The position numbers were made by a program, and so were the translations under genes. A stretch of DNA of 64,000 nt from Anaerolineales bacterium (GTDB lineage Bacteria > Chloroflexota > Anaerolineae > Anaerolineales > RBG-16-64-43), in contig JAFGKK010000068.1 in NCBI GenBank assembly GCA_016928575.1, positions 26,319 through 90,318 on the forward strand, written 5' to 3'. The notes beneath the pieces were generated by a model. It was given only the letters and a program-made list of their open reading frames with translations. It did not search any database and had not been told where the DNA came from. Below are positions 2,517 to 49,728 of the stretch, piece by piece; position 1 is the stretch's first letter, and every line of letters starts with the position of its first letter.

Positions 2517-3200
2517 TTAATCCACAAAACGGTACTTTACCAGCGCCCAAACGGCCGCGAAGGCGTCGGCCAGCCCGATCTTTTTCCCTTCGTTGTACTC
2601 CCGCGGATTGAAGGAGATCGGAATTTCAAAAAGCCGCGCCTTGCGCTTCAGGACCTTGGCGGTGATTTCGGGTTCGAAGTCGAACCGGTTAGCGCGTAAT
2701 GGAATGCTTTTCAGCAGATCGGCTTTAAACACCTTGTATCCGGTTTCCATATCCGAGAGGATGCTGTTGTAGAGAACATTGGTCGCCAGGGTCAGCAAGT
2801 GGTTGGCCACCATGTGCCAGAACATCGTCACCCGGCGTTTGGCTCCGAGGAAGCGGGATCCGTACACCACGTCCGCCACTCCACATTCGATCGGCTCCAG
2901 CAGGGCGGGGTATTCCGCCGGGTTGTATTCAAGGTCGGCATCCTGGACCAGGATCACGTCGCCGGAGGCTTTGCGGAATCCCGTCCGCAGCGCCGCGCCC
3001 TTTCCCTGATTGCAATCATGGAATACGGCGACGACCTCGGGGGGAGAGTCGAGCGAACGGAGGATCTCGCGGGTTCCGTCGGTCGAGCCGTCGTCGACCA
3101 ACAGTATCTCGGATGCCAAGCCGGTGGCCTTTACCCTGCGGACGATCTCGGCCGCCGTTTCCTTCTCGTTGAAGACGGGGATCACCACGCTTAATTTCAT
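2517..3200 (-). CDS. GT2 glycosyltransferase, polyprenyl/dolichyl-phosphate sugar (mannose/glucose) synthase-like
   Basis: N-terminus [25 protein letters not shown] and the QDADLEY (DxD) motif are present. The protein is 227 aa and soluble, Ppm1/DPM1-like in size. Confidence 0.85.
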
Positions 3201-3229
3201 CGAGGGAAAGTATACCGGGACTGACGGTG

Positions 3230-3258
3230 TTGGGCAACCCGCGAGCTCGTGCTATAAT
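3230..3258 (+). promoter_or_regulatory. Candidate sigma70-type promoter for the + strand array (TTGGGC -17 nt- TGcTATAAT)
   Basis: Perfect TATAAT at 3253-3258 with a TG extension at 3250-3251, and TTGGGC at 3230-3235. It lies in the divergent gap between the GT2 gene and the ATPase gene. Confidence 0.45.
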
Positions 3259-3309
3259 TCGTTGGAATCAGGATCCAGCCCCCCGGTCTTCTGCATCTGG
3301 AGGTGTCCT

Positions 3310-4644
3310 TTGCCCACTCCTGCATCGATCCCCCGCGCCGCCGAATCGGGCCCCCGTTTCACACCGCCCGTCATCACCCGCGTGGAAGATACCGGCCTCT
3401 CTTCGCTGTGGCTGCAGGACCTGGCTTTAAAAATTTTCTACTTCCGCGGATACCTCACCGGCTTCCGGGTGGCCGACCTCATGGCGCTGCCCTTTACCGG
3501 GATCGTGGACCAGATCGTCGAAACCCTGAAGCGGGAAAAACTGATCGAGGTGAAATCCCAAACCGGGATCGGCGACGGCGCCTACCAGTACGCCATTACC
3601 GGTCAGGGGATGATTCGCGCGCGGGAGGCGCTGGATCGCAGCCAGTATGCGGGAGCGGCGCCCGTTCCGCTCACCGACTACAATGCGGCGATTCGCAAAC
3701 AAGCCCGGGCGCGCCCGGCCGTCAACGCCCGCGTGATGCATCAATGCCTGCACGCCCTGACGCTTTCGGAGACGACATTTTCCCGGATCGGTCCGGCGGT
3801 GAACTCCGGAACGTCGATCTTCCTGTACGGACCTCCCGGAAACGGAAAAACCACTATGGCCCGGGCGATCGGCGACCTGATTCTTCAAGAAGAAATGTAC
3901 ATTCCCTACGCCCTGGACGTGGAAGGACATGTCGTCAAGTTATACGATTCCGTGAACCACCAATTGGTTCCCGAAGACGATCCTTCCTCCAGCCAGGCCA
4001 CCAGCACCATCCAGCGCAGCGCCAGCAAACGGGATCCGCGCTGGGTGCGGATCCGGCGGCCGTTCATCATGGTCGGAGGCGAATTAACCCTGGCCGGATT
4101 GGATCTGGTGTTCAACGACGTGCAGAAATACTACGAGGCGCCGTTTCAGGTGAAGGCCAACGGCGGCATCCTGCTGATCGACGACTTCGGCCGCCAGCAG
4201 GTGCGTCCGCGGGATCTGTTGAACCGCTGGATCGTGCCCCTCGAAAATCGGATCGACTATCTGACCCTCCACACCGGACAAAAAATCGAAATCCCCTTCG
4301 ACGTGATGGTGGTGTTCTCGACCAACCTTCCGCCGAAGGATCTGGTGGATGAAGCCTTCCTGCGCCGCCTGCGCCACAAGATCGAAGTGGTGGATCCGAC
4401 CTTTGACGAGTACCGCGAAATCTTCAAACGGGTTGCGGAATCGAAGGGCGTGGCTTACAACGAACAGGCGCTGGCGTACCTGATCCAGGAATACTATATC
4501 AAGACCAACCGCAAACCGCGGGCTTCGCATCCGCGCGATTTGTGCGATCAGATCCTCGACATCGGCCGCTATATGGGCACGGAACCCACCATGACCAAGG
4601 ACCTGATCGACCGGGCCGCGCAATCTTACTTCGTCGAGCTCTAA
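3310..4644 (+). CDS. AAA+ ATPase with a possible N-terminal winged-helix-like domain, function unknown
   Basis: Walker A is LYGPPGNGKTT, Walker B is GILLIDDFG, and there is an arginine-rich FLRRLRHKIEV region. I prefer the in-frame TTG at 3310, preceded by GGAGG at 3299-3303. The track ATG at 3010 would overlap the GT2 gene antisense by 190 nt. Confidence 0.75.
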   Translation: MPTPASIPRAAESGPRFTPPVITRVEDTGLSSLWLQDLALKIFYFRGYLTGFRVADLMALPFTGIVDQIVETLKREKLIEVKSQTGIGDGAYQYAITGQGMIRAREALDRSQYAGAAPVPLTDYNAAIRKQARARPAVNARVMHQCLHALTLSETTFSRIGPAVNSGTSIFLYGPPGNGKTTMARAIGDLILQEEMYIPYALDVEGHVVKLYDSVNHQLVPEDDPSSSQATSTIQRSASKRDPRWVRIRRPFIMVGGELTLAGLDLVFNDVQKYYEAPFQVKANGGILLIDDFGRQQVRPRDLLNRWIVPLENRIDYLTLHTGQKIEIPFDVMVVFSTNLPPKDLVDEAFLRRLRHKIEVVDPTFDEYREIFKRVAESKGVAYNEQALAYLIQEYYIKTNRKPRASHPRDLCDQILDIGRYMGTEPTMTKDLIDRAAQSYFVEL

Positions 4645-4837
4645 CCGGAATGCCGGCTTCTCCCGGCCCCATCCTCCGAACGACGCCGGCGGAATTGCCC
4701 ACCGCCGGCTTTTTTCCGCCCGGGCGGGCGCGGAATCGAACGGAGGAATCCGGCGGCACCGGGCTGCGTTTCTTGAATCCCCCCAACGATTTTCTTATAA
4801 TGGATGGTGTTCTTATCCTGATCATGGGAAGGGCATT

Positions 4838-6481
4838 ATGGATCGGACAACCGGCCTTTGGACCTCCGGCAAGCGGGCCGTCATCGTCGGCCTGATCGCC
4901 GCAGCGCTCCTGATCCTCACCGCCGACGCCATCGGACTCACCTGGGATGAGCCGGCCTACATCACGGCCTCGGAATCCTACACAGGCTGGTTCCACCGGC
5001 TGGTGTTCGGTCCGCACGGCGTATTGAACCGGAAGGTCATCGACGGTCATTGGACGGCGAACTCCGAGCATCCGCCCCTTAACAAGGTTTTCTCCGGGCT
5101 GGTGTGGGGGGTGACGCACACCCTCGTCGACGATCTGCTGGCGCACCGGTTGGCCAACATGCTGTTGTTCGGGCTGATGGCCGCGCTTTTGTATCACATG
5201 ATCGCGGACGAGTTGGGGGAAGCGGCGGCGATCGGGTCCGTGGCCGCCCTCATGACCTTGCCGAGGCTCTTCTTCCACGCCCACTTGGCGGCGCTCGACG
5301 TTCCCGCCGCCGGGATGATCGTGGTCGTCACCTACGTATTCTGGCGCACGAAGGAAAGCGCCCGTTGGCGCTATACGGTCCTGCTGGGCGCGGTGTGGGG
5401 CTTGGCCCTCTCCACCAAAATCAACACAGCCTTCGTGCTGCCGACCCTTTTCCTGTGGACGTTGGTTTTCCGGCGGAAACCCTACCTGATCCTGCGTTTG
5501 GTGCTGGCCGGTATCCTCGCCGCGCCCGTCTTCGTCGGGTTATGGCCGTGGCTGTATTACGACACCTTTGAGCGAATTAAGGATTTTGTGGCTTTCCAGA
5601 CGGTAAGCCACTGGAAGATACCGCAGTATTATCTCGGCCGGCTGTTCATGCCGCCCCCGTGGCATTTCCCCTTCGTGATGACCTTGGCCGTCGTTCCCTT
5701 GGGTACGCTGATCCTGGCCGGCCTCGGAATCCTGCGCGGAATATTCCGACGGCGGGACCGGGCGTTCTGCAGTCTGTTGCTCCTAAACGCGTTGGTGCCG
5801 ATGCTCGTGGTGGCCGCCGGACGGACCATGGTTTACGACAACGAACGGTTGATCATGCCCGCCTTTCCGTTTCTGGCCGCACTGGCCGGCGCCGGATTCT
5901 CCTGGCTGGCGCGCATGCTGCGGTCGATGTTCCAACGCGTCCGGGTTCCCGTTCTGGGAACCGCGCTGTCCGCCGCGGCGGCCCTGATCGTGCTTGCCCC
6001 GGCCGTGCACGGCATCACCTCCTACTTTCCGCACCTGCTTTCGTATTATTCCGAAGCCGTGGGCGGATTGCCCGGAGCGGCGAAAATGGGATTGGAGACC
6101 ACGTATTGGTGTGAAAGTTACCGCGAGGCGATCGATTTCATCAACGCCAACGCCAAACCCGGGGATTCGGTGTGGGTCGAATCCTCGAGCTACGAAGTAT
6201 TGGTGTACTACCAGTTGCACGGCGTCCTGCGGCAGGATGTCGTCATCGCCGTTCCGGAAGGCTTCGGAACGGAATCGATCTTCGGCGGCGGAGTCACCTC
6301 CCTTAAGCCCGCGGTCGCCTTCGACGAAGCGACATTCGTGATCCTCCAATACCGCCAATCCGGCCTTTACCAACCGGACAATTCCGAGACCGAGCTGCTG
6401 GAATGGGCCTCCGGCCGGCAGCCGGCCTACCGTTTGGAGCGGGAGGGGGTTCCCGTCATGGATGTGTATTGGAGTTACTGA
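4838..6481 (+). CDS. Polytopic membrane glycosyltransferase, GT-C fold (GT39/PMT_2/ArnT-like)
   Basis: There are at least 10 predicted hydrophobic helices. An acidic first-loop motif LTWDEPAYI follows TM1. A soluble C-terminal domain of about 140 aa is present. Confidence 0.75.
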   Translation: MDRTTGLWTSGKRAVIVGLIAAALLILTADAIGLTWDEPAYITASESYTGWFHRLVFGPHGVLNRKVIDGHWTANSEHPPLNKVFSGLVWGVTHTLVDDLLAHRLANMLLFGLMAALLYHMIADELGEAAAIGSVAALMTLPRLFFHAHLAALDVPAAGMIVVVTYVFWRTKESARWRYTVLLGAVWGLALSTKINTAFVLPTLFLWTLVFRRKPYLILRLVLAGILAAPVFVGLWPWLYYDTFERIKDFVAFQTVSHWKIPQYYLGRLFMPPPWHFPFVMTLAVVPLGTLILAGLGILRGIFRRRDRAFCSLLLLNALVPMLVVAAGRTMVYDNERLIMPAFPFLAALAGAGFSWLARMLRSMFQRVRVPVLGTALSAAAALIVLAPAVHGITSYFPHLLSYYSEAVGGLPGAAKMGLETTYWCESYREAIDFINANAKPGDSVWVESSSYEVLVYYQLHGVLRQDVVIAVPEGFGTESIFGGGVTSLKPAVAFDEATFVILQYRQSGLYQPDNSETELLEWASGRQPAYRLEREGVPVMDVYWSY

Positions 6482-6623
6482 GCGGGCAATTCGGCGGATC
6501 GTCCGCGCCGCCGCGGTCCGCCGACGGTATTGATGTCTGAAAGGGCGCATGGAAACCGGAGGAGATGCCCTTTGGGTTGCGATTTCTCATAAGATGATGC
6601 ATACTTAATGCGAAGGATGACGG

Positions 6624-9600
6624 ATGACGGAAATCGCACTCCGCGCGTATAACCAGGAGATCAAGGACCTTATCGATCACGGCCATTTCGATGAGGCGAT
6701 CGCGCATTGCCAGCACGTCTTGGAATCCTTCCCACGCCATATCGAAACCTACCGGCTCTTGGGAAAGGCGTTCTTGGAACAAGGCCGCCACGGCGATGCT
6801 GCGGACGTGTTCCAGCGGGTGCTTTCCGCCATACCCGAAGACTGGCTTTCGCACGTGGCGATGGCCATCGTCCGGGAGGACGAAAGCAACCTCGATATGG
6901 CGATCTGGCATATGGAGCGCGCCTACGAGGTGAATCCGTCCAATCCGACGGTTCAGCAGGAGGTGCGCAGGCTGCGCGGCCGGCGGGACGGGGTGGAACC
7001 GCCGAAACTCCGCCTTACCCGTTCGGCGCTGGCGCGGATGTACATCAAAGGGGGGTTGTACGGGCAGGCGATCGCGGAGATCCGCGGCGCTCTGTCAGAG
7101 GATCCGGACCGGCCGGATTTGCAGGTCCTGCTGGCATCCGCACTATACGATTCCGGTGCAATCCAGGAGGCCGCCGACCTCTGCAACACCCTTTTGCAGA
7201 AGCTCCCCTATTGCCTGGAGGCCAACCGGATACTGGGCTTGGTCCTGCTGGCGACGGACAAAGCGGAGGACGCGGAAAAATTATTCCAGCGGATAGAATC
7301 GCTGGATCCCCATATCGATATCGAGATCTTGAAAAAAGACAAGCGGATTGCTGAGCATCCCGGGCAAATGGTCTCTCTCTCCCGTCTGGAGTATGAGGGG
7401 CAGGAAAAGACCGTCCGCACAAAGCAGCAGCCGTCTTGGGCGTCGTCTTTGGGATTGAAGATCGAAGAACCGCAGCAAAAACAAGCCATTCCGGATTGGC
7501 TGGCGGCGGCCTCCCAGTCTTCAGCCGCATCCCCGTCCACTCCCAAACCCGCCGAGTCTTCGGCGGAATCCGCGGCAGCGATTCCCTCCTGGCTGGAGCA
7601 AGCCTCGGCTGCTGTCACGCCTCCCGTTCCGTCGGGTCCTTCGATTGGCACTCCGGCGGAGCCGCCCATCCCGATCGCCCGAACTGCGACGGGCGAACTT
7701 CCGGATTGGATTCAGAAGCAGGCGATTCCAGCCGAAACGCCGCCGGAGAGGACGTCCAGCCCGCTTCCGGATTGGTTGTCGGCGGCGGCTGCGCCGCCTG
7801 AAACGGCCTCCCCCGTTTCCGCAACGGCAACCGGTGATGCGCTTCCGGATTGGCTGGCCGCCGCCGCGGCGGCGCCGATGGCGGACCAGCCGGTCGAACC
7901 CAAGGCGCCCGCAGGAACGGCGGAACAGGCCACCGGCAACGCTTTACCGGATTGGATCAAAACGTCCTCCCTGACGTCGGAGCCGCCGAAGGAAAAAATT
8001 TCCGATATTCCGGATTGGCTATCTACTCCGCCTCCACCCGCGGTGGATGCTCTGCCGCCCACATCTTTGCCGGAGTGGTCCAGGCCGGAAACGAAAACCG
8101 GCCCGTTGGAAATCGAATCCGGAAATATCCCCGATTGGCTGAGTTCATCGCAACCCACCAGCTCCGGGGTCGCGCCGGAACAGGAATGGATGAAAGAGGC
8201 ACCCAAACCGCCCTCCGACGCCATGCCGGAATGGATGAAGGGAGTATCCCCGGCCGAACCTCAGGCCTCCGTCCAACCCTCCGGCGAAGACGTTCCGGAT
8301 TGGCTGCGGGAGACGACAGCCCCGGCCGCGAAACCGGTGGAACTGGTTCCCGAATGGATGCGCGGCGAAGCCTCGGCACCCGCCGCCAGCCCGCCCAAAA
8401 AATCGGCCGGCAAAATGCCTCCGCCGGAAGAAGATATTCCAGAATGGATGAAACCGGAACCGTCCGAGGTGCCGGTTCTCCCGCCGTCGAAACCGATCTT
8501 CGGTGCAAAAACCGAACCGCCGGCAGAGGCGCCTTCGGCGCCGCCTTCCGCCCCAACGCCAGCGGCATCCGCTCCGGAAGTAGACTTGCCGGATTGGATG
8601 AAAGCCGCTTCATCCCCGGAGCCCGCCGCCGAAAAACCGCGGGAGGCCGAACCCGAGGCGGCACCCGCGGAGGAAATTCCAGATTGGTTGAAAGGCGCCG
8701 CCCCATCGGGGATCCAACCCGCCGCGATGCCGGTGGAAGGCGCGGAATCTCCGGCGGCCGCAGAGGAACGCCCTCCGGCGGAACCCGTTCCGGATGTCGA
8801 TATGCCCGACTGGTTGAAAGCGGTCCCGGCACGGCCGCCGGCCCCCGTGGAAGCAAAACCGTCCGTCGAAGCTCCGGTTCAAACGGCTCCTGCTGTGGAA
8901 ATCCCGGATTGGTTGAAGGGCGGGCCCTCAGCAGCCGCCGCGGAATCGGGCCAGCCGAAAGCGCCCGCCGAAGTCCCGGCAGGAGCCGAACCGGAGGTGG
9001 AACTGCCGGATTGGCTCAGAGATGCTTCGTCCGTACCGGCTTCGGGAGCCGTTGCGGCAACACCCGTGGTAACACCTTCCTCACCCCCGTCAGAGGCTGT
9101 TGCCTCTGCGGAGGCCCCTGAGACTCCTTTCATTTCGCAAAAATCCGCTCCTCCCAAACCGCCACAAACCCTGCCGGGACAAGCGGCCGAGGAACCGGGT
9201 CCAGCCCATGCAACGCCGACGGCCAAAGACGGAATAGACCTGCCGGATTGGCTGGTCACCCAACTGCAGGGAAAACCGAATGCCGCGGAAGCCGCTCCCG
9301 CCGCGGCGAAAGCCGAGGCGCCGTTGCCCGATTGGTTGAGGCCGGCGAATTCCGGAGCGGCGGCTCCCGTCGTGGACTGGGAAAAAGCCGCCAGCCAGCC
9401 GTTGCCTGCGGCGCCGGTCGATGCGACGAGGCCGGCAAAACCAGCGGAGGAAAAACCCGCGGGCGGGGCGGCGCAAGTCCCCGGATGGCTGGATAAATCC
9501 AAACCGACTGGAAGCGATACGGTGGCCCGATGGCTGGACCGGCGGTTGAAAACCTCCACGTTGAGTTCTTTGGATGAAGCGGTATTGAAAAGCGGTGTGA

Positions 9601-10685
9601 AGCCTTCCACAGCACCGCCGCCGGGCCGGACCGGCACCGGAACACAGCTGCCGACTTGGCTGGATGCCCAAAAACCGGGCGCCTCCGACACCGTCGTCCG
9701 TTGGATGGACAAGCGGGAGACCGGGTCGCTGAGGAAGACACCAACCGCGACCTTTTCATCCGTCTCTAAAGCTGCAGCCATTGCGAGAGGGGAATCCCTC
9801 CCTCCGTCTGCGGAGACGCCGGCCAAAAGCGAAGCACCGGCGCCGGTATCCGGGTCGGAGGATACCGTCACCTCAAAGAGGTCACCTGTCGAAAGCACGC
9901 CGGTCCAGGCGCAACCGGCCGCCGCTGTTCCATTCCCTGCGCCGGTTCCGCCGAAACCGCCGGCGGAACCGAGAATTCCCAAACCGGCCCAGGCCGAGGC
10001 GACTGTGTCTACGGCCGGCACGGCCGCCGGCGAAGATGATGAGGGGGAATTCGTTCCGCCGCCGGAATGGCTGCAGAAAGCCTTGGGAAGCGCCGTGGCG
10101 GACGTGCCGCCCATTCCAAAGAAACAAACCGGCAACCTCAAACCCGGGACCGTATCCCCGGTTTCCGCGTCCACTCCGAAGAGCATGTCCCGCCCCGCGG
10201 CGCCGCCGGAGAAATCCGTTGCCGCGGTTTCCCCGCCACCCGCCGAAGTGACTCGCAAGACCGTTCCGGCCGAAGAATCGGAGCCCGCCGCCGTCGCCAG
10301 ACCCGGCGCTTGGGTTCCGTTGGCCCCGCAGGCGGCAACAGCTCCGACTGCACCCGAACCGGCGCCTGCGGCCGCCAAACCCGAAAAAGCCGCAAAGAAA
10401 TCCTCCCGAAAGAAGGCTCGGAAAATTACCGCCGTGGAAGCGGAAGCGATCATCCGCGAAGCCCGCATCTATCTGGAAACCGATTTGCAGAAAGCATCCG
10501 AGGCGTATCAGCAAGTGATCGAGGATCCCGAACGCGCAGAGATCGTCGCGGGAGACCTGACGACCTATCTGGAGCAGGATCCGGCGTCGCCCCAGCTCTG
10601 GAACCTTCTGGGAGATGCTTGCAGCCGCGCCGGCCGCCTGCAAGACGCCTACCGGGCTTATGCGGAAGCCTTGCGCCGGATGTAG
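6624..10685 (+). CDS. Giant TPR-flanked low-complexity protein with repeated PDWL-type motifs
   Basis: 1353-aa ORF with a GAAGGA RBS. The N-terminal ~235 aa and C-terminal ~90 aa are TPR-like helical repeats. The centre is Pro/Ala/Ser/Glu-rich with recurring [ILMV]P[DE]W[LIM]. No signal peptide or TM helix is visible. Confidence 0.85.
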   Translation: MTEIALRAYNQEIKDLIDHGHFDEAIAHCQHVLESFPRHIETYRLLGKAFLEQGRHGDAADVFQRVLSAIPEDWLSHVAMAIVREDESNLDMAIWHMERAYEVNPSNPTVQQEVRRLRGRRDGVEPPKLRLTRSALARMYIKGGLYGQAIAEIRGALSEDPDRPDLQVLLASALYDSGAIQEAADLCNTLLQKLPYCLEANRILGLVLLATDKAEDAEKLFQRIESLDPHIDIEILKKDKRIAEHPGQMVSLSRLEYEGQEKTVRTKQQPSWASSLGLKIEEPQQKQAIPDWLAAASQSSAASPSTPKPAESSAESAAAIPSWLEQASAAVTPPVPSGPSIGTPAEPPIPIARTATGELPDWIQKQAIPAETPPERTSSPLPDWLSAAAAPPETASPVSATATGDALPDWLAAAAAAPMADQPVEPKAPAGTAEQATGNALPDWIKTSSLTSEPPKEKISDIPDWLSTPPPPAVDALPPTSLPEWSRPETKTGPLEIESGNIPDWLSSSQPTSSGVAPEQEWMKEAPKPPSDAMPEWMKGVSPAEPQASVQPSGEDVPDWLRETTAPAAKPVELVPEWMRGEASAPAASPPKKSAGKMPPPEEDIPEWMKPEPSEVPVLPPSKPIFGAKTEPPAEAPSAPPSAPTPAASAPEVDLPDWMKAASSPEPAAEKPREAEPEAAPAEEIPDWLKGAAPSGIQPAAMPVEGAESPAAAEERPPAEPVPDVDMPDWLKAVPARPPAPVEAKPSVEAPVQTAPAVEIPDWLKGGPSAAAAESGQPKAPAEVPAGAEPEVELPDWLRDASSVPASGAVAATPVVTPSSPPSEAVASAEAPETPFISQKSAPPKPPQTLPGQAAEEPGPAHATPTAKDGIDLPDWLVTQLQGKPNAAEAAPAAAKAEAPLPDWLRPANSGAAAPVVDWEKAASQPLPAAPVDATRPAKPAEEKPAGGAAQVPGWLDKSKPTGSDTVARWLDRRLKTSTLSSLDEAVLKSGVKPSTAPPPGRTGTGTQLPTWLDAQKPGASDTVVRWMDKRETGSLRKTPTATFSSVSKAAAIARGESLPPSAETPAKSEAPAPVSGSEDTVTSKRSPVESTPVQAQPAAAVPFPAPVPPKPPAEPRIPKPAQAEATVSTAGTAAGEDDEGEFVPPPEWLQKALGSAVADVPPIPKKQTGNLKPGTVSPVSASTPKSMSRPAAPPEKSVAAVSPPPAEVTRKTVPAEESEPAAVARPGAWVPLAPQAATAPTAPEPAPAAAKPEKAAKKSSRKKARKITAVEAEAIIREARIYLETDLQKASEAYQQVIEDPERAEIVAGDLTTYLEQDPASPQLWNLLGDACSRAGRLQDAYRAYAEALRRM
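7488..10075 (+). repeat. In-frame array of about 27 short [ILMV]P[DE]W[LIM] motifs (18 strict, about 9 degenerate) at irregular 20-60 aa spacing
   Basis: Examples are IPDWL, LPDWI, LPDWL, MPEWM, VPDWL, IPEWM, LPDWM and MPDWL. At the DNA level the 9-mer CCGGATTGG recurs at least ten times (for example near 7491, 7701, 7766, 7846, 7939, 8011, 8295, 8590, 9006, 9243). Confidence 0.9.
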
Positions 10686-10765
10686 CCGCGCTGAATTGCT
10701 GATTGCGCTCCGCCGCCCGCCAATTCTCCGATTTCGCCCCCGCTCGATATCGAATTGAGGTAGCC

Positions 10766-12208
10766 GTGAACATACGCCGCCTGGTGATTACCGTCGTTTT
10801 TCTAGGTCTGCTGTATATGGCCGCCCGGCCGATGATCGACACGGACACCTGGTGGCACCTGCGGACCGGGCAATGGATCCTGGAAAACCGGGCTCTGCCG
10901 CAAGTGGATCGGTTCTCCTTTTCACGGGACGGCGAACCGTGGTACTACCCGGGCTGGCTGGCGGAAATACTCATGGCCAAGGTGCACGCGCTGGGCGGCT
11001 TGGCGGGGTTGAATCTCCTGTTCGGCGGCGTACTGGTTTTGGCTTTTCTCGTCATCCATCTCACCATGGAAGGGAATCCCTTCCTGCGCGGCGCGGTTTT
11101 TATCCTGGCCGCGGGCGCATCCGAAATTTATTGGAATGCGCGTCCGCAACTGTTCACATTTCTGTTCACCGCCTGCTTTTACCTTTGCCTGCGGCGGTAT
11201 CTTTGGGGCAGACGGAACGCACTATGGGTTCTGCCCCTGATCATGGTCCTGTGGGTCAATATCCACGCCGGGTTTGCAGTTGGGTTCATTCTTTTGCTTG
11301 TTGCGGTTTTCGGGCAGGGGTTGCATTTCCTGGCGCAAGGCGCCTCCCGGCCTCCCGAGACGGGCCGGAAGCTGGCCTGGCTGGTCGGAACGCTTGCGGC
11401 GTGCCTGGCTGCGGCCGCCGTCAATCCGCATGGAATAACCATCCTCGCCTACCCGTTTAAGACCGTATCGATCCAATTCCTACAGAGATTCATCCAGGAA
11501 TGGCAGTCGCCCGATTTCCATTACCTGGAAGCCCAGCTGTTCCTGATCCTCTTTTTTGCGGCGTGGGCCGCGGTCGTTTTCTCCCCCGAGAAGATGGATG
11601 TCCGCGATTTTTGTTTCCTCGCGTTTATCGGCTATATGGGTTTTCTGGCCTGGCGGAACACCAATTTGCTTTCCATCGTCGCTCCGGCCGTCATCATGAA
11701 ATACGCCCAGCCCATCGTGGACCGTCTTTTCCCAGGCTGGGATCCGGACCATGCCGTATCGAAACTGCAGTCCGCCGTCCACATCGCGGCGGCCGCCTGC
11801 CTGACCGTCGCGGTTCTGTTTCTCGGAGCCGCATCGCTTTCACCGGAATCCATCCAAACGGCCATCCGCCGGCAGGTGCCGGTTGACGCCGTCTCCTATT
11901 TGGCGGAAAATCCGGTGCAAGGCAGGATGTTCAATTCCTACAACTTCGGTTCTTATCTGTTGTGGTATCTGCCCGGAATCCCGGTGTTTGTGGACGGCAG
12001 GACGGACCTCTACGATGACGAAATCCTGAGTCAATACCTCACGGTCATTCATGCGCGGGAAGGCTGGCGCGAGATCATGGAACAATGGCGGATTGAAGTA
12101 GTGTTTGTCGAAGTCACCGCCCCGATCCGGCAGGTTCTACTTTCTGAGGGATGGACGGTTTTGTATCAGGACGATAAAGCCGTCATCCTCGTCTTGCCCG
12201 GAGGCTGA
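10766..12208 (+). CDS. Polytopic membrane protein, putative GT-C-like glycosyltransferase
   Basis: GTG start at 10766 after a GAGG RBS (the track start at 10703 is less likely). Multiple TM helices are present. The first-loop acidic motif is MIDTDTWWHLRTG. The C-terminal domain is soluble. Confidence 0.6.
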   Translation: MNIRRLVITVVFLGLLYMAARPMIDTDTWWHLRTGQWILENRALPQVDRFSFSRDGEPWYYPGWLAEILMAKVHALGGLAGLNLLFGGVLVLAFLVIHLTMEGNPFLRGAVFILAAGASEIYWNARPQLFTFLFTACFYLCLRRYLWGRRNALWVLPLIMVLWVNIHAGFAVGFILLLVAVFGQGLHFLAQGASRPPETGRKLAWLVGTLAACLAAAAVNPHGITILAYPFKTVSIQFLQRFIQEWQSPDFHYLEAQLFLILFFAAWAAVVFSPEKMDVRDFCFLAFIGYMGFLAWRNTNLLSIVAPAVIMKYAQPIVDRLFPGWDPDHAVSKLQSAVHIAAAACLTVAVLFLGAASLSPESIQTAIRRQVPVDAVSYLAENPVQGRMFNSYNFGSYLLWYLPGIPVFVDGRTDLYDDEILSQYLTVIHAREGWREIMEQWRIEVVFVEVTAPIRQVLLSEGWTVLYQDDKAVILVLPGG

Positions 12209-12220
12209 ACCTCCCCGGCC

Positions 12221-13840
12221 ATGACCCCCCAAACCCGATCGGCCTCCGCGTGGCGCGGGTTCCTCTTGCTCCTGCTTCTGCTGACGGCTTCGGCGGCGGC
12301 GTGGATGGAAGCCTTCTTCATCCGCCGGCCCGGAACGATGGATGCCTGCTACTACTACAGCGGCGGCGTGAACCTCGTCCGCGGAACGGGTTGGCAGGAG
12401 TTTTTTTTATGGAACTACTTGGATGAGGAGGCTGAGATTCCTTACCCCGCCTACCAATACTGGATGCCGCTCGCTTCATTCGTCGCGGCGGCGGGGATGG
12501 GATTGTTGGGGGAGGGCTTCCGGCAAGCCCAGGCGCCGTTGTTGCTTCTCGCCGTATCCTTCCCCTGGCTGGCCTTCCTCACGGGCAAGCAGTTGACCGG
12601 TTCTTTCCGGGTCGGCATCCTCGCCGGTTTTTTCGCGATCGGTTCGGGTTTCTACACCGTCTACTGGTTGAATACCGAGAGTTTTCTGATTTATGCGTGG
12701 ATTGGAGGTTTGACCCTCCTGCTGGCCGCCCGGTCAGGCCGATCGCAAACCCGCCGGCGTGTTTTTCTGATCGGCGCACTGTGCGGATTGGCGCATCTTG
12801 CCCGAGCGGACGGCATCCTCTTGTTGGGAGTGGCCGCCATCCTAATCCTGGCAGACGGTTGCTTTTCCTACCCGGCCCGCGCCGGCCGGACCTGTCTTCT
12901 AGCGGCCGGGTATTTCCTCACCAGCGGAATCTGGTATCTCCGCAACCTGCGGGTATGGGGAAGCCCGTTTCCTCCCGGCACGGGAAAGGCGTTTTTCCTC
13001 AACGAATACAACGACCTTTTCCGATACCCCTCCGCCGATCTCACCCTGGAGCGATTCCTCTCCGCCGGCTTGGAGGATATGCTGGCCGCGCGCTGGGAGG
13101 CGTTTCAGGCCAACCTGACCACGACGGTTTTCGTACTCGGCTTGGTTTTTTTGTTCCCGCTAATGGCCTGGGGTGCGTATCTCCTCAGGCGCAAATCCGA
13201 AATCCGGACCGCTGCCGGTTATCTGCTGATTCTTTTTTTCCTGATGACCGCGGTATATCCGTTCCAAGGGTCGCGCGGCGGTTTTCTCCATTCATCTGCG
13301 GCGCTGATTCCGGCGGCGGCGGCGGCGGCGGCGTTGGGTTTGGAGGACGTTGTCGAACGGCTGATTCGCTGGAGGAAATGGGAAGCGGTTTCCGCACGCG
13401 CTTTCCTGGGAGCCGGCATGGCCGGTTTGGCGCTTTCTGCCAGCGCATTCATCTATTACAGCCGCGTGGTCGGCTCGGCGTCCGGAGGGTCCGCTTGGGA
13501 TGGATTGAACGTCCAATACGTAATGGGTGTCTCCCGCTTGGAACCGGTGCCGCCCGGAACCATCCGGTTCATGGTCAACAATCCGCCGTGCTTCTATGTT
13601 CGGACGGGGTATCCGGGCCTACCGGTGCCGGCAGGGGATTCCACAATGCTTCTCGAAGCCGCCGACCGATATGGAGTCCGTTTTGTCGTGTTGGACGGAA
13701 ACGCTCCGGAAGGACTGCAGTCCCTGTACCGGGGTACGGACTCGCATCCGCGGCTGAGGCGGATTTTCAGCTTGGAGTACGACGGCATGGAGTATGTGTG
13801 GTTTGAAGTGATCCCCGCCGCTCCGGGAACGGATTCATGA
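12221..13840 (+). CDS. Polytopic membrane protein, GT-C/GT39-like glycosyltransferase
   Basis: More than 10 hydrophobic helices. The first loop reads PGTMDACYYYSGG. The C-terminal domain is soluble. The gene starts 13 nt after the previous gene. Confidence 0.6.
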   Translation: MTPQTRSASAWRGFLLLLLLLTASAAAWMEAFFIRRPGTMDACYYYSGGVNLVRGTGWQEFFLWNYLDEEAEIPYPAYQYWMPLASFVAAAGMGLLGEGFRQAQAPLLLLAVSFPWLAFLTGKQLTGSFRVGILAGFFAIGSGFYTVYWLNTESFLIYAWIGGLTLLLAARSGRSQTRRRVFLIGALCGLAHLARADGILLLGVAAILILADGCFSYPARAGRTCLLAAGYFLTSGIWYLRNLRVWGSPFPPGTGKAFFLNEYNDLFRYPSADLTLERFLSAGLEDMLAARWEAFQANLTTTVFVLGLVFLFPLMAWGAYLLRRKSEIRTAAGYLLILFFLMTAVYPFQGSRGGFLHSSAALIPAAAAAAALGLEDVVERLIRWRKWEAVSARAFLGAGMAGLALSASAFIYYSRVVGSASGGSAWDGLNVQYVMGVSRLEPVPPGTIRFMVNNPPCFYVRTGYPGLPVPAGDSTMLLEAADRYGVRFVVLDGNAPEGLQSLYRGTDSHPRLRRIFSLEYDGMEYVWFEVIPAAPGTDS

Positions 13841-15324
13841 AGCGCCTTTTGCGCGTCGCGGCTTGGGGATGCCTCTGGTTGGCCGGGCCGGCCTTGTTCC
13901 TAGTTCGGGAACAAGCCGGCGGGGTATCCGGATTTCCGCTGGATGACGCGTGGATTCACCAAACCTATGCCCGTTCCCTGGCCGGAGGCTTGGGGTGGTC
14001 CTACGCCGGCGGGCCGCAGTCCGCAGGATCCACTTCGCCTTTGTGGACTCTTTTGCAGGTTCCCGCATTTTGGTTTTCCCTGCCGCCCAAAGTCTGGAGC
14101 AGTGTGTTGGGCATCGTTCTGCTGGCCGCCAACGCCGGACTGATCGGGCTGTGGATCCGACGAATCGACCGCGGAGCCTCCCGTTTGGCGTTTTTTTTCT
14201 GCTTGGCGGAATGGCACCTGGTATGGGCGGCGCTGTCCGGAATGGAAACCGTCCTGTTTTGCACCTGGATTTCCGCAATCCTTTTCCTTTTCTTTCCGGT
14301 GCATGATGACCGGGGCGGACAATCCCAATTCCCGCTGGCGGCTGCGGCGATGGGTGCGCTTTCGGGCATGGGCGTATGGATTCGGCCGGAGGCGCTTCTG
14401 CTTACCGGACTGGCAGGGCTCGCCGCGGCGATCCAATGGCGGCCGGTTTCGGCCGGGAAGGCGGCGGGTTACCTGGCGGGCGCGGCGATGCCGATTTTTC
14501 TATACGCGGCCTTGGAGTATTCCCTGAACGGACGCATGCTGCCGAACACCTATTTCGTAAAAACCGTGGAATATACATCTTTGACCTCGACCACGATCCT
14601 GATCCGTTTGCTGCAGCCGTGGATCCCGCTGCTCGCGGGGCCGATCGCCGTCCTGGCATTCTTCCTGCCGAGCGGGGCGCTGGGAGTGCTCCGCGGGCGC
14701 GGGGCGGTGTGGGGGTTGCCTTTGCTCTGGGCGGTTGCCCATCTCGCCCTGTATGCCGTGCAGCTTCCGGCGACCTACCAGCACGGGCGCTATTTCATCC
14801 CCGTCCTTCCGGTCCTGATCGCGTACGGCACAGTTGGAGGCCACCGCTTATGGAAAAAACACTCCTCCGCGGGAGCCGGACGGATTGCCGTTCGCACGCT
14901 GTCGATCAGCGCGGCGGGACTGGCGGCCGCCTTCTTATGGATCGGCGCCGGACAATTCGCGGAAGACGTCCGCCTGATCGAATCCGAAATGGTCGCGGCA
15001 TCGGTCTGGATCCGCGACCACATGCCGCCGGAAACGGTGGTGGCCGCCCACGATATCGGCGCGCTGGGATTCTTCGGCGGCAGGAGAATCCTGGACTTGG
15101 GGGGGGTGACCGACCTGGGCGCCGTGAACCTTCTGGCGGGGAAGATCAGCCTCCGCGAATACCTGGAACGGGGGGAGGCCGATCTGCTGATGACCATGCC
15201 GGATTTTTACCCCGGTGAATTGGACTCCTGCACGCCGTTGGAGGGGTTTTCCGGCGGAATTCCCGCGGCGGAATCAAGCCGGCGCACTCGGATTTACCTC
15301 TGGCGGGAGGCTTGCGCATGGTGA
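13837..15324 (+). CDS. Polytopic membrane protein, GT-C-like glycosyltransferase (DD first-loop motif)
   Basis: Its start overlaps the upstream stop by 4 nt (ATGA). The first loop reads FPLDDAWIHQTYARS. Multiple TM helices are followed by a soluble C-terminal domain. Confidence 0.6.
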   Translation: MKRLLRVAAWGCLWLAGPALFLVREQAGGVSGFPLDDAWIHQTYARSLAGGLGWSYAGGPQSAGSTSPLWTLLQVPAFWFSLPPKVWSSVLGIVLLAANAGLIGLWIRRIDRGASRLAFFFCLAEWHLVWAALSGMETVLFCTWISAILFLFFPVHDDRGGQSQFPLAAAAMGALSGMGVWIRPEALLLTGLAGLAAAIQWRPVSAGKAAGYLAGAAMPIFLYAALEYSLNGRMLPNTYFVKTVEYTSLTSTTILIRLLQPWIPLLAGPIAVLAFFLPSGALGVLRGRGAVWGLPLLWAVAHLALYAVQLPATYQHGRYFIPVLPVLIAYGTVGGHRLWKKHSSAGAGRIAVRTLSISAAGLAAAFLWIGAGQFAEDVRLIESEMVAASVWIRDHMPPETVVAAHDIGALGFFGGRRILDLGGVTDLGAVNLLAGKISLREYLERGEADLLMTMPDFYPGELDSCTPLEGFSGGIPAAESSRRTRIYLWREACAW

Positions 15325-15406
15325 GGCGCAGAGCGGAGGGGCCGCGGATTCGCCCGCATGTTTGCCAAGCCACAGGGGTAATGCTATACTTTCGTGCGGG
15401 AGTTCC

Positions 15407-16132
15407 ATGACCGATATTAGAATCGTACTCATCGACGATCATCCGCTTTACCGCGAGGGCGTGAAGAAAGCCATCACGTCTTTTTCGGATTTGACCATCG
15501 TGGGCGAAGCCGGAAACGGACACGACGGGCTGGACTTGCTCCGCAACACCCGTCCGGACGTTGCGATCCTCGACGTCAATCTCCCGGATGAAAACGGCCT
15601 GCAGATCGCCCGGCGGGCGGGATCCGAGATGCCCGACATAAAAATCGTCCTCCTGACGGGCTACACGGATTGCGAGCAGCCGCTGCACGCCTTTCGAGCG
15701 GGCGCCCGGGCGTATTGCTCCAAGGACATCGAACATGAACAGCTGGCGGAAATCATCCGGATCGTCGCCTCGGGAAAATGGGTGTACGAGGGCCGGATCA
15801 TGGACGCCAAGGAAAAGCAGGCCTGGTTGGACGATCAGATGGCCGGGCTCAAGACGGAAACCGGTTCCGAGGATCTTTTCGCCCCCTTGACCCAACGGGA
15901 ATCCGAGATCCTCAACCTGGTGGCACGCGGATTGACCAACAAACAAATCGGATACCTGCTGGGAATCAGCGAGCAAACGGTTAAAAACCACCTCACTTCG
16001 CTGCTGCGGAAGATCGGCGCCAGCGACCGGACCCAAGCCGTGGTCTACGCGCTAAAGCACGGGTGGATCCGCCTCCCGGAAGGAAACGAAACATCGGAAC
16101 CATCCTCCCTACCGTTCTCCAAAGAGGAATGA
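15407..16132 (+). CDS. Response regulator, NarL/LuxR (DegU-like) family
   Basis: ATG at 15407 gives MTDIRIVLIDDHPLYREG. The receiver Asp lies in VAILDVNLPDENG. The C-terminal LuxR HTH reads LTQRESEILNLVARGLTNKQIG. The track start at 15215 is an upstream extension. Confidence 0.85.
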   Translation: MTDIRIVLIDDHPLYREGVKKAITSFSDLTIVGEAGNGHDGLDLLRNTRPDVAILDVNLPDENGLQIARRAGSEMPDIKIVLLTGYTDCEQPLHAFRAGARAYCSKDIEHEQLAEIIRIVASGKWVYEGRIMDAKEKQAWLDDQMAGLKTETGSEDLFAPLTQRESEILNLVARGLTNKQIGYLLGISEQTVKNHLTSLLRKIGASDRTQAVVYALKHGWIRLPEGNETSEPSSLPFSKEE

Positions 16133-16144
16133 TCAGGGCCGCCC

Positions 16145-17203
16145 ATGACGAAAGAGTCCAAAACCCCGGAGCCCGCGGATCTGGAAAAAGAAACCCTGTC
16201 CGTAGACGATCTCGTCCCCTTGATCGGATCGCAATTGGACGAGATAAAAACCCAGTCGAAAGAAATCCGGTCGCTGATAAGTCAAAGCCGCAGCGAAGTA
16301 GAAAAAATGAAGATGCGGCAGGCTTCCGAGGCCATGCGGCTGAAGCAGATCCAATCCTCCTTCGATTCCGTGCCCCGGGAGGACATCCGCAAGGCGTATG
16401 AATCCTCGATGGACACCCAACAACGCCTGTTCGCCATGAGCGGACAACTGGAGCGCCTGCAAGCCCAGCAAGGGGTCCTCGACCAATTCGCTTCCTTCCT
16501 TGAAAAAATCCACGAAACCCTGCGGATCAGCCAGCCGGATGCGGCCGCCGGCCCGGCGCCGAAATCGGTCGTCGTCCGGGTGGTGGAAGCCCAGGAGGAG
16601 GAGCGCAAGCGGCTTTCGCGGCAGATGCACGACGGACCGGCGCAAGTCCTATCCAACTTCATCCTCCAGGCGGAAATTGCCGCGCGGCTGTTCGAAATGG
16701 ATCCGGTCCGCGCCAAAGAGGAACTGAACAACCTGAAAGCCACCGCCAACTCCGCCTTCCAGAGGGTCCGCAATTACATTTTCGAACTGCGTCCAATGAT
16801 GCTCGACGATCTAGGGCTTGTCCCGACGTTGAGAAAGTATCTGGACAGCATCAAAGAACAGGGACAACAGGAGATAACCTTCGTGTTCACGGGAACCGAA
16901 CGCCGGATGCCGAGCCACATTGAAGTGGTTACGTTCCGGGCGATCCAGGAATTGGTAGCCCTGGCCCGCGATGAGGCCGAGGCGGGAAAAATCAAAGTCT
17001 CGGTGGATCTGGACGACGTGCGGGTGAAGACGGTTTTGGAAAACGACGGGAAAATCCTGGAAGAAAAAAGCAGCGGAGAGGAAGATCCGCATGGTTTAAA
17101 GTCGTTGCGGGAGAGGGTGGAAATGCTGGGTGGGTCGTTCGATTACGCATCCCAGGCGGGGCAGGGCACATACACCGCGATCGAACTTCCCGCGGGAGAA
17201 TAA
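16145..17203 (+). CDS. Cytoplasmic sensor histidine kinase, HisKA_3 (DegS/NarX-type)
   Basis: The H-box is EEERKRLSRQMHDGPAQ and a C-terminal HATPase region is present. There is no TM helix. The N-terminal region looks like a coiled coil. Confidence 0.85.
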   Translation: MTKESKTPEPADLEKETLSVDDLVPLIGSQLDEIKTQSKEIRSLISQSRSEVEKMKMRQASEAMRLKQIQSSFDSVPREDIRKAYESSMDTQQRLFAMSGQLERLQAQQGVLDQFASFLEKIHETLRISQPDAAAGPAPKSVVVRVVEAQEEERKRLSRQMHDGPAQVLSNFILQAEIAARLFEMDPVRAKEELNNLKATANSAFQRVRNYIFELRPMMLDDLGLVPTLRKYLDSIKEQGQQEITFVFTGTERRMPSHIEVVTFRAIQELVALARDEAEAGKIKVSVDLDDVRVKTVLENDGKILEEKSSGEEDPHGLKSLRERVEMLGGSFDYASQAGQGTYTAIELPAGE

Positions 17204-17518: not shown

Positions 17519-17560
17519 GGAAAAAACCAGATCCATTTTCTAGGAAAGGAGGTGAAAGCC

Positions 17561-17707
17561 ATGCTAAAGAAATTGCAGAAGAAAGGGCAAGGTTTGGTCG
17601 AGTATGCATTGATTTTGGTGTTGGTTGCCATCGTGATTATTATTATCCTTTCGGTCCTCGGTCCCGCCATCGGCAACGTCTTCAGCCAGATCATCAGCGC
17701 GATCTAG
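17561..17707 (+). CDS. flp: Flp/Fap-family type IVb prepilin (48 aa; not in the supplied ORF track)
   Basis: The product is MLKKLQKKGQGLVEYALILVLVAIVIIIILSVLGPAIGNVFSQIISAI. It has the G-xxxx-EY Flp processing motif (G9, E14, Y15), a hydrophobic core, an AGGAGG RBS at 17548-17553 and a terminator immediately downstream. Confidence 0.85.
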   Translation: MLKKLQKKGQGLVEYALILVLVAIVIIIILSVLGPAIGNVFSQIISAI

Positions 17708-17725
17708 CGACCGATAGCAGACCGG

Positions 17726-17762
17726 AAAATTGAGCCCCGTTTTTCGGGGCTCAATTTATTTC
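17726..17762 (+). terminator. Rho-independent terminator after flp
   Basis: A 10-bp stem (TTGAGCCCCG / CGGGGCTCAA, 17730-17739 and 17745-17754) with a TTTTT loop, followed by a T-rich tail. Confidence 0.7.
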
Positions 17763-17813
17763 GGAGTAATATTATCCGCAATCAAAAAATATACTGTTTT
17801 TTTACGCCTCTCC

Positions 17814-17841
17814 TTGACTTTTGTCATATTATTAGTATGAT
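17814..17841 (+). promoter_or_regulatory. Candidate promoter for the cpaB-tadC operon (TTGACT -16 nt- TATGAT)
   Basis: TTGACT at 17814-17819 and TATGAT at 17836-17841 in an AT-rich gap upstream of cpaB. The cpaB RBS is GGAGG. Confidence 0.4.
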
Positions 17842-17877
17842 AGCAAACATTCGGCGCCTATCCACCTGGAGGTCCAA

Positions 17878-18903: not shown

Positions 18904-18909
18904 CTGCGA

Positions 18910-20148: not shown

Positions 20149-20187
20149 GCCGTGCCGGGGGTATTCCTGTAGAAAGGAAGTGGCACC

Positions 20188-21588: not shown

Positions 21589-21607
21589 TCTCCCCCGGAG
21601 TCATCTC

Positions 21608-22576: not shown

Positions 22577-22585
22577 CAGGCCATC

Positions 22586-30806: not shown

Positions 30807-30874
30807 GGGATGTCCTTCCTCTATTGGCAAAAACCAAACGGGAAACGGTTTCCCGTTTCCCGACGAACGATCAG

Positions 30875-49552: not shown

Positions 49553-49728
49553 GGTTCCCCCCCTGGATCAAAAAATCCGGGCTGAGAATACCACGAGCCC
49601 CGCAAATGGGTCAAGTTGCGCTTTTTTTCAGCGTTTTTTTCGAATTCCCGGAAAGACCGGACTCGGTTGGAGACAGGACGCCCCTGTCACGAATCTCCCA
49701 TAACACTCCGGAAGATATAATACCCCTT

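Follow-up and report, generated by a model that had tools for sequence, protein, structure and literature searches.

The stretch of DNA analyzed in this study (the window) is 64,000 nucleotides of contig JAFGKK010000068.1 from an Anaerolineales bacterium (assembly GCA_016928575.1). For positions 2517-15324 of the window an initial annotation, made from the sequence alone, had proposed a single envelope module consisting of a polyprenyl-phosphate sugar synthase of glycosyltransferase family 2 (GT2), an AAA+ ATPase, a giant tetratricopeptide repeat (TPR) protein and four membrane proteins resembling glycosyltransferases of the GT-C fold. Listing and translation of the open reading frames (ORFs) found the divergent GT2 gene and six co-directional genes (g2-g7) in this region. 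The genes that had been described are real, though the co-directional ones number six and not seven as first stated. In the names used here, g1 is the GT2, g2 is the ATPase, g3, g5, g6 and g7 are the polytopic proteins, and g4 is the giant TPR protein:

2517-3200 (-): g1, predicted soluble GT2 with domain PF00535, 227 amino acids (aa), no transmembrane (TM) helix
3310-4644 (+): g2, predicted ATPase, 444 aa, TTG start and conserved N-terminus
4838-6481 (+): g3, predicted PMT_2-type GT-C protein (PF13231), 547 aa, about 9 or more TM helices
6624-10685 (+): g4, TPR/low-complexity protein, 1353 aa, TPR domains at both ends
10766-12208 (+): g5, predicted GT-C-fold protein, 480 aa, from AlphaFold2 (AF2) and Foldseek
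12221-13840 (+): g6, predicted GT-C protein and distant PMT_2 relative, 539 aa, from PMT_2 matches of orthologues and hhalign
13837-15324 (+): g7, predicted GT-C-fold protein, 495 aa, from AF2 and Foldseek

The 1353-aa protein (6624-10685) and the large polytopic proteins (4838-6481, 10703/10766-12208, 12221-13840 and 13837-15324) are present as described. The longest ORF of g5 begins at 10703, and the start was placed at the GTG at 10766 on the strength of a conserved GAGGA-GTG and a 480-aa database protein. Both g5 and g7 are identical to proteins of an NCBI metagenome-assembled genome (JW929_09160 and JW929_09170). The spacing of the genes runs, much as had been reported, from 193 nt between the ATPase and g3 down to a 4-nt overlap between g6 and g7, with 80 nt between g4 and g5 and 12 nt between g5 and g6, so that only g5-g6-g7 are packed like an operon. 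An Rfam scan gave no match inside the 2517-15324 span, and a literature search found no description of the GT-C array or of the g4 motif reported below.

All four polytopic proteins are predicted to be GT-C glycosyltransferases, g5 and g7 from AF2 models searched with Foldseek, and g3 and g6 from matches to PMT_2 and profile comparison. Each protein has 7-9 hydropathy peaks, and in all four there are basic residues before the first TM segment (TM1). Profile-profile comparison and structure prediction were needed because pairwise BLASTP among g3, g5, g6 and g7 gave nothing significant; sequence and profile searches of the four against the PDB were empty as well. The match of g3 to PF13231 (PMT_2, cut-off 26.1 bits) has an E value of 2.7e-10 and scores 41.1 bits. 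In the window, g6 stays below this cut-off (2e-4, 22.0 bits), and 12 of 23 g6 orthologues match PMT_2 at E<=0.01, the best of them at 4.5e-9. Family-level comparison with hhalign linked g3 to g7 (94% probability, E 1.5e-7) and g6 to g7 (92-94% probability, E 1e-7 to 6e-7, about 300 columns).

Neither g5 nor g7 matches a Pfam or NCBIfam family, and AF2 prediction with a Foldseek search of the PDB was applied to these two proteins. The resulting models, which contain about 11-13 long helices, have a pLDDT of 92.7 for g5 (alignment of 51 homologues) and 88.7 for g7 (56 homologues). Foldseek returned 17 matches for g5 at E<=1e-3, all of them GT-C proteins (DPY19, STT3, ArnT, AglB, AftA and AftD, TMq 0.44-0.60). 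For g7 there were 20 matches at E<=1e-3, again all GT-C and with TMq up to 0.63, including ArnT (5f15, 1.7e-7, TMq 0.63), AftB (9dlh, TMq 0.62), STT3, ALG12, ALG9 and PglB. Some g7 homologues are named 'arabinofuranosyltransferase' by JGI. The g5 family has at least 979 homologues, and orthologues of g3 occur in the close clade only (defined below).

Invariant acidic residues lie just past TM1 in all four families, on the side opposite the basic N-terminus. In g3 this is E38 (invariant in 12 sequences) within a WDEP motif, in g5 D25 and D27 (51 sequences) within VDxDTWWH, in g6 D41 (23 sequences) within MDAxYYY, and in g7 D36 and D37 (56 sequences) within FPLDDAWIHQTYAR (FPLDDAWIH), each motif following TM1. 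A GT-C fold with an acidic motif in its first loop implies transfer from lipid-phosphate-linked sugars at the outer face of the membrane. Given this fold and the neighbouring polyprenyl-phosphate sugar synthase genes, g3, g5, g6 and g7 would be expected to use a lipid-phosphate-linked sugar donor. The expectation that the four proteins would model as GT-C enzymes is thus borne out, by the structure models for g5 and g7 and by PMT_2 and hhalign for g3 and g6. None of the four is strict GT39 or an ArnT equivalog: a Pfam search at E<=0.01 found no PMT (PF02366), MIR or PMT_4TMC domain in g3, g5, g6 or g7, and no ArnT model in NCBIfam was matched by any of the membrane proteins.

The comparison of gene order was based on 114 related loci (labelled with L and a number). 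A scan from the ATPase side took one genome per species, giving 24 loci, which were then searched by tblastn with all window proteins. A scan of metagenomes with a g5 profile gave 80 further loci, of which the 77 with a g5 less than 55% identical form the distant set (772 kb in total). Loci with an ATPase at least 90% identical are referred to as the close clade, and 11 close loci were used for the comparison of spacers. The neighbouring genes that enter this comparison are the following:

291-2003: RecJ, upstream of the GT2; the L001 orthologue carries DHH, DHHA1 and RecJ_OB
15407-16132 (+): LuxR-type response regulator
16145-17203 (+): DegS-like HisKA_3 kinase, soluble
17552-17707 (+): Flp pilin, 51 aa, with a G/LVEYAL site
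17552-23536 (+): Flp pilin together with the Tad genes CpaB, CpaE, CpaF, TadB and TadC

The full order is identical in 12 close loci. For the close clade the arrangement exceeds what chance would give, but not for loci beyond it. Conservation of gene order, on which the initial annotation had made its proposal depend, is seen in close relatives, but it dissolves exactly at the boundary between the ATPase and the GT-C genes. The genes g3-g7 follow the ATPase in only 10 of the 24 genome loci, namely those with an ATPase at least 90% identical, and in 14 of the 24 no member of g3-g7 lies within 10 kb of the ATPase. What stays together on this side is RecJ, the GT2 (-) and the ATPase (+). Most Anaerolineae loci with sequence on the upstream side have these three together, even where the ATPase is only 68% identical, and Bellilinea is among them; in one Anaerolineaceae locus (L024) RecJ is about 7 kb away. 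Outside the close clade the ATPase is followed by genes for a glycerophosphodiester phosphodiesterase and a GH3-like protein.

Seen from the GT-C side, loci with g5/g7 homologues at 32-47% identity have the order g5, variable inserts (GT87, DUF8201, PMT_2), g6, g7, response regulator, kinase, Flp and Tad. The GT2, the ATPase and g3 were not found in the g5/g7 homologue loci looked up at 34-47% identity, and the ATPase, RecJ or a g3 orthologue occurs in none of the 77 distant g5 loci (772 kb). Where at least 9 kb lie downstream of a distant g5 (n=19), g6 is present in 13, g7 in 10 and two-component genes in 9. Where at least 9 kb lie upstream (n=14), g4 is present in 4. A g4 directly upstream of g5-g6-g7 was also seen in a second lineage (L033, L038 and L039) in which g7 is 37% identical. 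In some loci g4 lies within 6-9 kb on the opposite strand, and in others it stands beside sigma-70, NDK or unrelated genes.

The pair of response regulator and kinase is the most constant neighbour of g7 and the GT-C array. It follows g7 in L001, L003, L028, L029 (kinase only), L033 and nine metagenome loci, and in most of the distant loci that reach past g7. The Flp/Tad genes come in the same order in L001, L028 and L033. Between g5 and g6, most other Anaerolineae have 3.5-9 kb of extra genes, including GT87 and DUF8201 (L003, L028, L029, L034 and the metagenome loci L043-L110), and in L034 the g5 homologue stands among about 8-10 GT-C-like genes with WecG, Wzy_C-TPR, YfhO and GT4. The clade of the window carries the shortest version of the array.

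From the comparison of loci on the ATPase side, the g5/g7 side and the g4 side, it follows that the span brings together, in this one clade, several separately conserved blocks: RecJ with the GT2 and the ATPase; g3; g4, in some loci attached to the block that comes after it; and g5...g6-g7 with the two-component genes and Tad. The conserved unit consists of g5, variable extra GT-C genes, g6, g7, a DegS/LuxR-type pair and the Flp/Tad operon, often with g4 upstream. The single module that had been proposed comes apart into separately transcribed and separately conserved units that are adjacent in one clade only. As for the repeat protein, g4 does show a partial association with g5-g7, but the partnership between g4 and the ATPase that had been suggested finds no support.

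The separation into units is also predicted from the transcription signals of the span:

3209-3258: back-to-back divergent predicted promoters, 3231-3258 on the + strand for the ATPase and 3237-3209 on the - strand for the GT2
4685-4715 (+): predicted intrinsic terminator after the ATPase stop, GCCGGCGG-loop-CCGCCGGC and then TTTTTT
4773-4801 (+): predicted promoter P2 for g3, TTGAAT-17-TATAAT, from the consensus scan
6577-6605 (+): predicted promoter footprint P3 for g4, TTGCGA-17-CATACT, from footprinting
15362-15390 (+): fourth promoter-like site, before the response regulator

The promoter that had been noted at 3231-3258 is present as a match to the consensus, and its extended -10 TGCTATAAT and the GTATAC box on the opposite strand are conserved across Anaerolineae loci. 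It was, however, taken to drive one operon, and this is contradicted by the terminator at 4685-4715 and by the promoters at 4773-4801 and 6577-6605, both of which are kept in 11 of 11 close loci. The terminator, read directly from the sequence, has a perfect 8-bp GC stem and a run of six T; the automated scan missed it because its loop is 9 nt. An equivalent CCGGCGG...CCGCCGG stem with a variable loop and a T-run is found in 6 further close loci. Around P2 the remainder of the 230-350-nt spacer cannot be aligned. P3, which scores under the consensus threshold of the scan tool, lies in a 33-nt block (GGGTTGCGATTTC..AAAGATG.TGCATACTT) that is nearly invariant, with few variable positions, in all 11 loci, while the rest of that spacer has diverged. 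There is no clear promoter in the 80-nt gap between g4 and g5, and g5 may be read through from g4. These signals suggest at least four transcription units in the span. The g3 leader (4802-4837, and also L001 and L004-L013) has a conserved GTTCTTATCTTCC..AGGAAGG, a palindrome that covers the g3 Shine-Dalgarno sequence. A regulatory hairpin was considered there and rejected, as the folding energy is no better than that of shuffled sequences (z -0.9 to +0.5).

The GT2 is likely a soluble polyprenyl-phosphate hexose synthase of the DPM1/ArnC/AglJ class, because it has a full GT2 domain (PF00535, 3.7e-33 in Pfam), aligns over nearly its full length with such enzymes and has no hydrophobic segment in the hydropathy scan. 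Residues 1-209 of 227 align with the dolichol-phosphate mannose synthase (DPMS) of P. furiosus (5mlz, 4.7e-22), and the ArnC structures 9bhc/8vxh match at 1e-20. In NCBIfam the matches are AglJ (2.9e-35), PpgS (2.5e-17), a dolichol-phosphate hexose transferase (2.3e-15) and ArnC (82.6 bits). Every equivalog cut-off was missed by these matches, with the ArnC score of 82.6 bits standing against a cut-off of 529. The earlier description of a soluble, divergent GT2 of the Ppm1/DPM1 type (2517-3200, - strand) agrees with the PF00535 match and the DPMS/ArnC alignment.

In 9 of the 77 distant loci (L042, L048, L049, L051, L059, L070, L072, L099 and L101), paralogues of this donor-synthase class lie no more than a few kb from the g5 homologue. 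They are ArnC/GtrB/PgfS/AglJ/PpgS-like and 27-37% identical to the window GT2, and in L049 the gene lies just 55 nt downstream of the g5 homologue. The logic of a pathway formed by a donor synthase and GT-C enzymes, which had been put forward for the window genes, finds support in this independent recurrence of the pairing. Elsewhere in the window a ManC-type sugar-1-phosphate nucleotidyltransferase (47343-48437, -) and a GT4 (49531-50985, +) flank dprA. The former is probably a GDP-mannose pyrophosphorylase and may provide the GT2 with its nucleotide sugar, though as an indication of mannose it is only a hint.

The ATPase ORF starts with TTG at 3310 behind a GGAGGTG Shine-Dalgarno sequence, and orthologues share this start as well as the N-terminus. 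An overlapping ORF (3303-4352) was rejected as an Arg-rich wrong frame. The protein has an N-terminal domain (about residues 1-150), a Walker A motif GPPGNGKT (174-181), a Walker B with DD at 291-292 and a sensor-1/Arg region (336-353). The distance of about 110 residues from Walker A to Walker B is an atypically long insert. PF00004 scores 27.7 against a cut-off of 21.2, yet its best-scoring stretch is only 20 residues. In the profile search against the PDB, Walker A and residues 320-392 align to Vps4, and the similarity to Vps4, CdvC, VAT and spastin is confined to short stretches in the P-loop and the sensor-1/arginine region. The N-terminal 150 or so residues and the Walker insert have no Pfam match, and since Pfam, NCBIfam and PDB matched P-loop and sensor stretches only, the protein was placed no more precisely than as a divergent AAA module of apparently classical type with an N-terminal domain. 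A winged helix was suspected in the N-terminal domain but is not claimed, as the one match was to TFIIE_alpha at 0.06 in one homologue.

Among relatives, the identity of the ATPase stays at 90-95% where that of the genes next to it is 50-60%. Its family comprises 813 clusters at 50% identity (E<1e-30, full-length matches). Some members have extra N-terminal domains, and the names at the source are generic, such as 'predicted ATPase with chaperone activity'. The family reaches beyond the Anaerolineae, as shown by a homologue in Herpetosiphonaceae (L026, 45% identity) that has neither a GT2 nor RecJ adjoining it. On this evidence the ATPase is not a component of the GT-C system. The proposed partnership of the ATPase with the GT-C genes and the repeat protein is not supported in view of the 14 of 24 loci that lack g3-g7 within 10 kb and the 77 distant g5 loci that lack the ATPase.

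The giant protein g4 is the most unusual element of the region. It consists of an N-terminal TPR region (1-260), a linker of about 1000 residues rich in Pro, Ala, Ser and Glu (about 55% together), and a C-terminal TPR region (about 1280-1353). It has no TM segment and no signal-like N-terminus and is cytoplasmic-looking; the linker is predicted to be disordered and would be a tether between the two TPR domains. The linker contains 20 motifs of the form [DE]-[LIV]-P-[DE]-W-[LM]-[KR] between residues 290 and 1150 (window 7491-10074), spaced by 18-194 and mostly 18-79 residues. The core P[DE]W[LIM] was observed 19 times against 0.05 expected by shuffling. There is no tandem repeat in the DNA of g4, and the motifs are therefore not a recent duplication. 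The N-terminal TPR is about 50% identical across many Anaerolineae, and the motifs are kept in those distant orthologues; this conservation, together with the missing DNA repeat, indicates that they are selected short linear motifs. It should be noted that in L030, L031, L032 and L033 the g4 orthologue was called as 2-4 fragments in different frames, with motifs in more than one frame, in several long-read assemblies. Such fragmentation probably reflects frameshift errors in the low-complexity region, and it would explain why database matches to g4 are all 506 aa or shorter.

The g4 motif resembles the C-terminal peptide of FtsZ, D-I-P-x-F-L-R, and the W-acidic ligands of TPR domains, a resemblance that serves as a lead only. 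An FtsZ gene, wanted for comparison of its tail, was found neither in the window nor in the collected loci. FimV/HubP are hub proteins with TPR domains and long acidic repeat regions, and g4, with a TPR at both ends and a long Pro/Ala/Ser/Glu-rich motif region, is similar to them in layout, though it differs in having neither a TM segment nor a LysM domain. One could imagine g4 as an undescribed bacterial scaffold that, by means of multivalent short linear motifs, gathers many copies of one partner at sites of envelope synthesis or septation and in this way organizes the GT-C enzymes from within the cytoplasm. Candidates for the partner would be the TPR domains of g4 itself or some protein that recognizes peptides like the FtsZ tail. 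This idea is rather a long shot.

Among known systems, the closest functional analogy is offered by EmbA/B/C, AftA-D and PimE/GT87 of mycobacteria and corynebacteria together with Ppm1, where, as here, several GT-C enzymes are encoded together along with a soluble GT2 of the DPM1/Ppm1 type. The structural matches found for g5 and g7 include AftA, AftB, AftD, EmbB and PimE, and GT87 genes are inserted in the homologous arrays of Anaerolineae. However, the analogy would be one of working and not of family membership. There is no membership at the sequence level, the PDB profile searches having been empty, and the window proteins, from another phylum, are about 500 aa with a small C-terminal domain, whereas Emb and AftD have large carbohydrate-binding domains. 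Among the window ORFs that were scanned (part of all ORFs), no genes for decaprenyl-phospho-arabinose were found.

The ArnC/ArnT and GtrA/GtrB/GtrX systems follow the same two-step logic of a GT2 polyprenyl-phosphate sugar synthase and a GT-C transferase. The GT2 has ArnC among its top matches, g7 is structurally closest to ArnT, and GtrB/PgfS/ArnC-like genes stand beside g5 homologues elsewhere. The differences are that no equivalog score was reached, that the span has no flippase gene, that the window GT2 is divergent from the ATPase and not with the GT-C genes, and that there are four GT-C proteins instead of one. With GT39 PMT and actinobacterial Pmt the region shares the PMT_2 match of g3 (and more weakly of the g6 family) and the acidic motif after TM1, but PF02366, MIR and PMT_4TMC are missing, and Pmt1/2 and Pmt4 are weak structural matches only. 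TfpW, the GT-C pilin arabinosyltransferase of Pseudomonas, is encoded directly beside pilA with genes for its arabinose donor. The likeness here is a GT-C enzyme near the gene of a type IV-like pilin; in the window, however, g7 and flp are 2.2 kb apart, with a response regulator, a kinase and separate promoters between them, and the Flp is tiny. The ATPase aligns with classical AAA proteins (Vps4/CdvC, Cdc48/VAT and spastin) in Walker A and the sensor-1/arginine region, but it differs in that these matches are short stretches only, in its 110 or so residues from Walker A to Walker B, and in its N-terminal domain of about 150 aa that no Pfam family matches.

The reading favored here, with a probability of roughly 0.6, is that at least four transcription units lie next to each other in the span, in this clade only, and that they include a GT-C array assembling an extracytoplasmic envelope glycan, by analogy with Emb/Aft/PimE. 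In the mechanism proposed, the GT2 would charge polyprenyl phosphate with a hexose from a nucleotide sugar at the cytoplasmic face. The ATPase would be a divergent, monocistronic unit that travels with RecJ and the GT2 across the Anaerolineae, g3 would be a PMT_2-type GT-C with its own promoter, and g4, also with its own promoter, would be followed by the tightly packed g5-g6-g7. Each GT-C enzyme would have its N-terminus inside and its invariant Asp/Glu motif in the first outside loop, and would most likely take a flipped polyprenyl-phosphate monosaccharide at the outer face and add one kind of linkage to the glycan. The product would be a wall-linked or lipid-anchored polysaccharide, built as Emb, Aft and PimE build arabinogalactan and lipoarabinomannan, and the window GT2 or its paralogues would supply the donor in trans. 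The analysis itself shows the gene content, the GT-C fold or homology, the class of the GT2, the transcription signals and the pattern of synteny, and from these we infer the type of donor, the envelope glycan as acceptor and the supply link from the GT2 to the GT-C enzymes. Stepwise building or decoration of an envelope glycan is favored on the basis of the row of divergent GT-C genes, the repeated GT-C insertions, the locus with WecG, Wzy_C, YfhO and GT4, and the GT2 genes near g5 in nine loci. The ManC-type gene and the GT4 found elsewhere in the window add to this polysaccharide context.

Several points weigh against this reading. No flippase of the GtrA/ArnEF type was found in the span, and we know of no glycan described for these uncultured organisms. 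GT-C enzymes also glycosylate proteins (PMT, PglB and TfpW), and the fold is silent on the acceptor. The array is consistently beside the Flp/Tad operon, which could mean a role related to pili. The link between the window GT2 and the array is only a logical one, because this GT2 is conserved with the ATPase and RecJ and not with the GT-C genes. The gene g4 adjoins g5 in two diverged lineages and could be a true partner, with a role that the proposal leaves unexplained. Finally, the promoters and the terminator are predictions backed by conservation.

That the array instead glycosylates proteins, either the Flp pilin as TfpW does or an S-layer or other surface protein as PMT and actinobacterial Pmt do, with the two-component system co-regulating it with piliation, is an unlikely alternative by analogy, though one with several facts on its side. 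Many loci preserve the order g6-g7-response regulator-kinase-Flp-CpaB at 32-47% identity, PMT_2 is matched by g3 and by the g6 family, and the structural neighbours STT3, PglB, AglB, DPY19 and Pmt4 all act on proteins. It was rated below a polysaccharide because of the two regulatory genes, promoters and own spacer that lie between g7 and the pilin, the small size (about 37 residues) and largely hydrophobic composition of the mature Flp, which has only 3 Ser and lacks Thr, and L029, where g5, g6, g7 and the kinase are present but Tad genes are not. The building of a polymer, more than the modification of one protein, would also account for arrays in which different GT-C genes number from 3 to more than 10 and are accompanied by Wzy_C, WecG, YfhO and GT4, and the MIR and PMT_4TMC domains expected of a PMT are missing.

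Two further readings concern the connection between the genes. If the order of the genes were simply inherited in a slowly rearranging lineage, with each GT-C in an unrelated pathway, one would understand why RecJ, a DNA-repair nuclease, is as constant beside the GT2 and the ATPase as these two are to each other, and why an HPF gene follows the Tad operon in several loci, a sign of long-range synteny. Such a lack of any functional connection is nevertheless improbable: g5-g6-g7 are joined by a 12-nt gap and a 4-nt overlap and stay linked at 32-47% identity while their flanks change, and the recurrent insertion of GT-C and donor-synthase GT2 genes in the array argues for a shared pathway. The opposite view, that the GT2, the AAA+ ATPase, g4 and the four GT-C proteins make up a single, jointly transcribed envelope machine whose glycosyltransferases are organized or powered by the ATPase and the scaffold, has very little chance of being right. 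The genes are adjacent and, the GT2 aside, co-directional, with the same order in 12 close loci, g4 is found beside g5-g7 even in the lineage with a g7 only 37% identical, and the ATPase and the GT2 have a conserved divergent promoter region in common. Against it stand the terminator behind the ATPase and the conserved promoters that g3 and g4 have of their own. The ATPase occurs without g3-g7 within 10 kb in 14 of 24 loci, is absent from the 77 distant g5 loci (772 kb), and belongs to a large family (813 clusters) that extends beyond the Anaerolineae, with L026 lacking an adjoining GT2 or RecJ. Orthologues of g4, for their part, are also found next to sigma-70, NDK and unrelated genes.

Other features of the window were observed in passing. 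A gene for tmRNA (158 bits in Rfam) and smpB are immediate neighbours (30872-31264, -, and 31286-32023, -), a tRNA is located at 52671-52743 (-), and a 681-aa protein that consists almost entirely of WD40 repeats is encoded at 60296-62341 (-).

Anaerolineae are abundant filamentous Chloroflexota of sediments and digesters, and to our knowledge almost nothing is known of how they build their envelope. The array does not overturn current understanding, since the kind of system it appears to represent, extracytoplasmic glycan assembly that depends on polyprenyl-phosphate sugars, is already known. This study also removes a false lead: the ATPase appears to stand outside the GT-C system, yet it is very conserved, widespread and uncharacterized. 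What this study defines is a class-wide conserved array of very divergent predicted GT-C enzymes, including the g5 family of at least 979 members for which there is no Pfam or NCBIfam model. Candidate catalytic residues are given for these enzymes, and the array is tied to polyprenyl-phosphate sugar synthases. The array points to a mycobacteria-like route of extracytoplasmic glycan assembly in an unrelated phylum.

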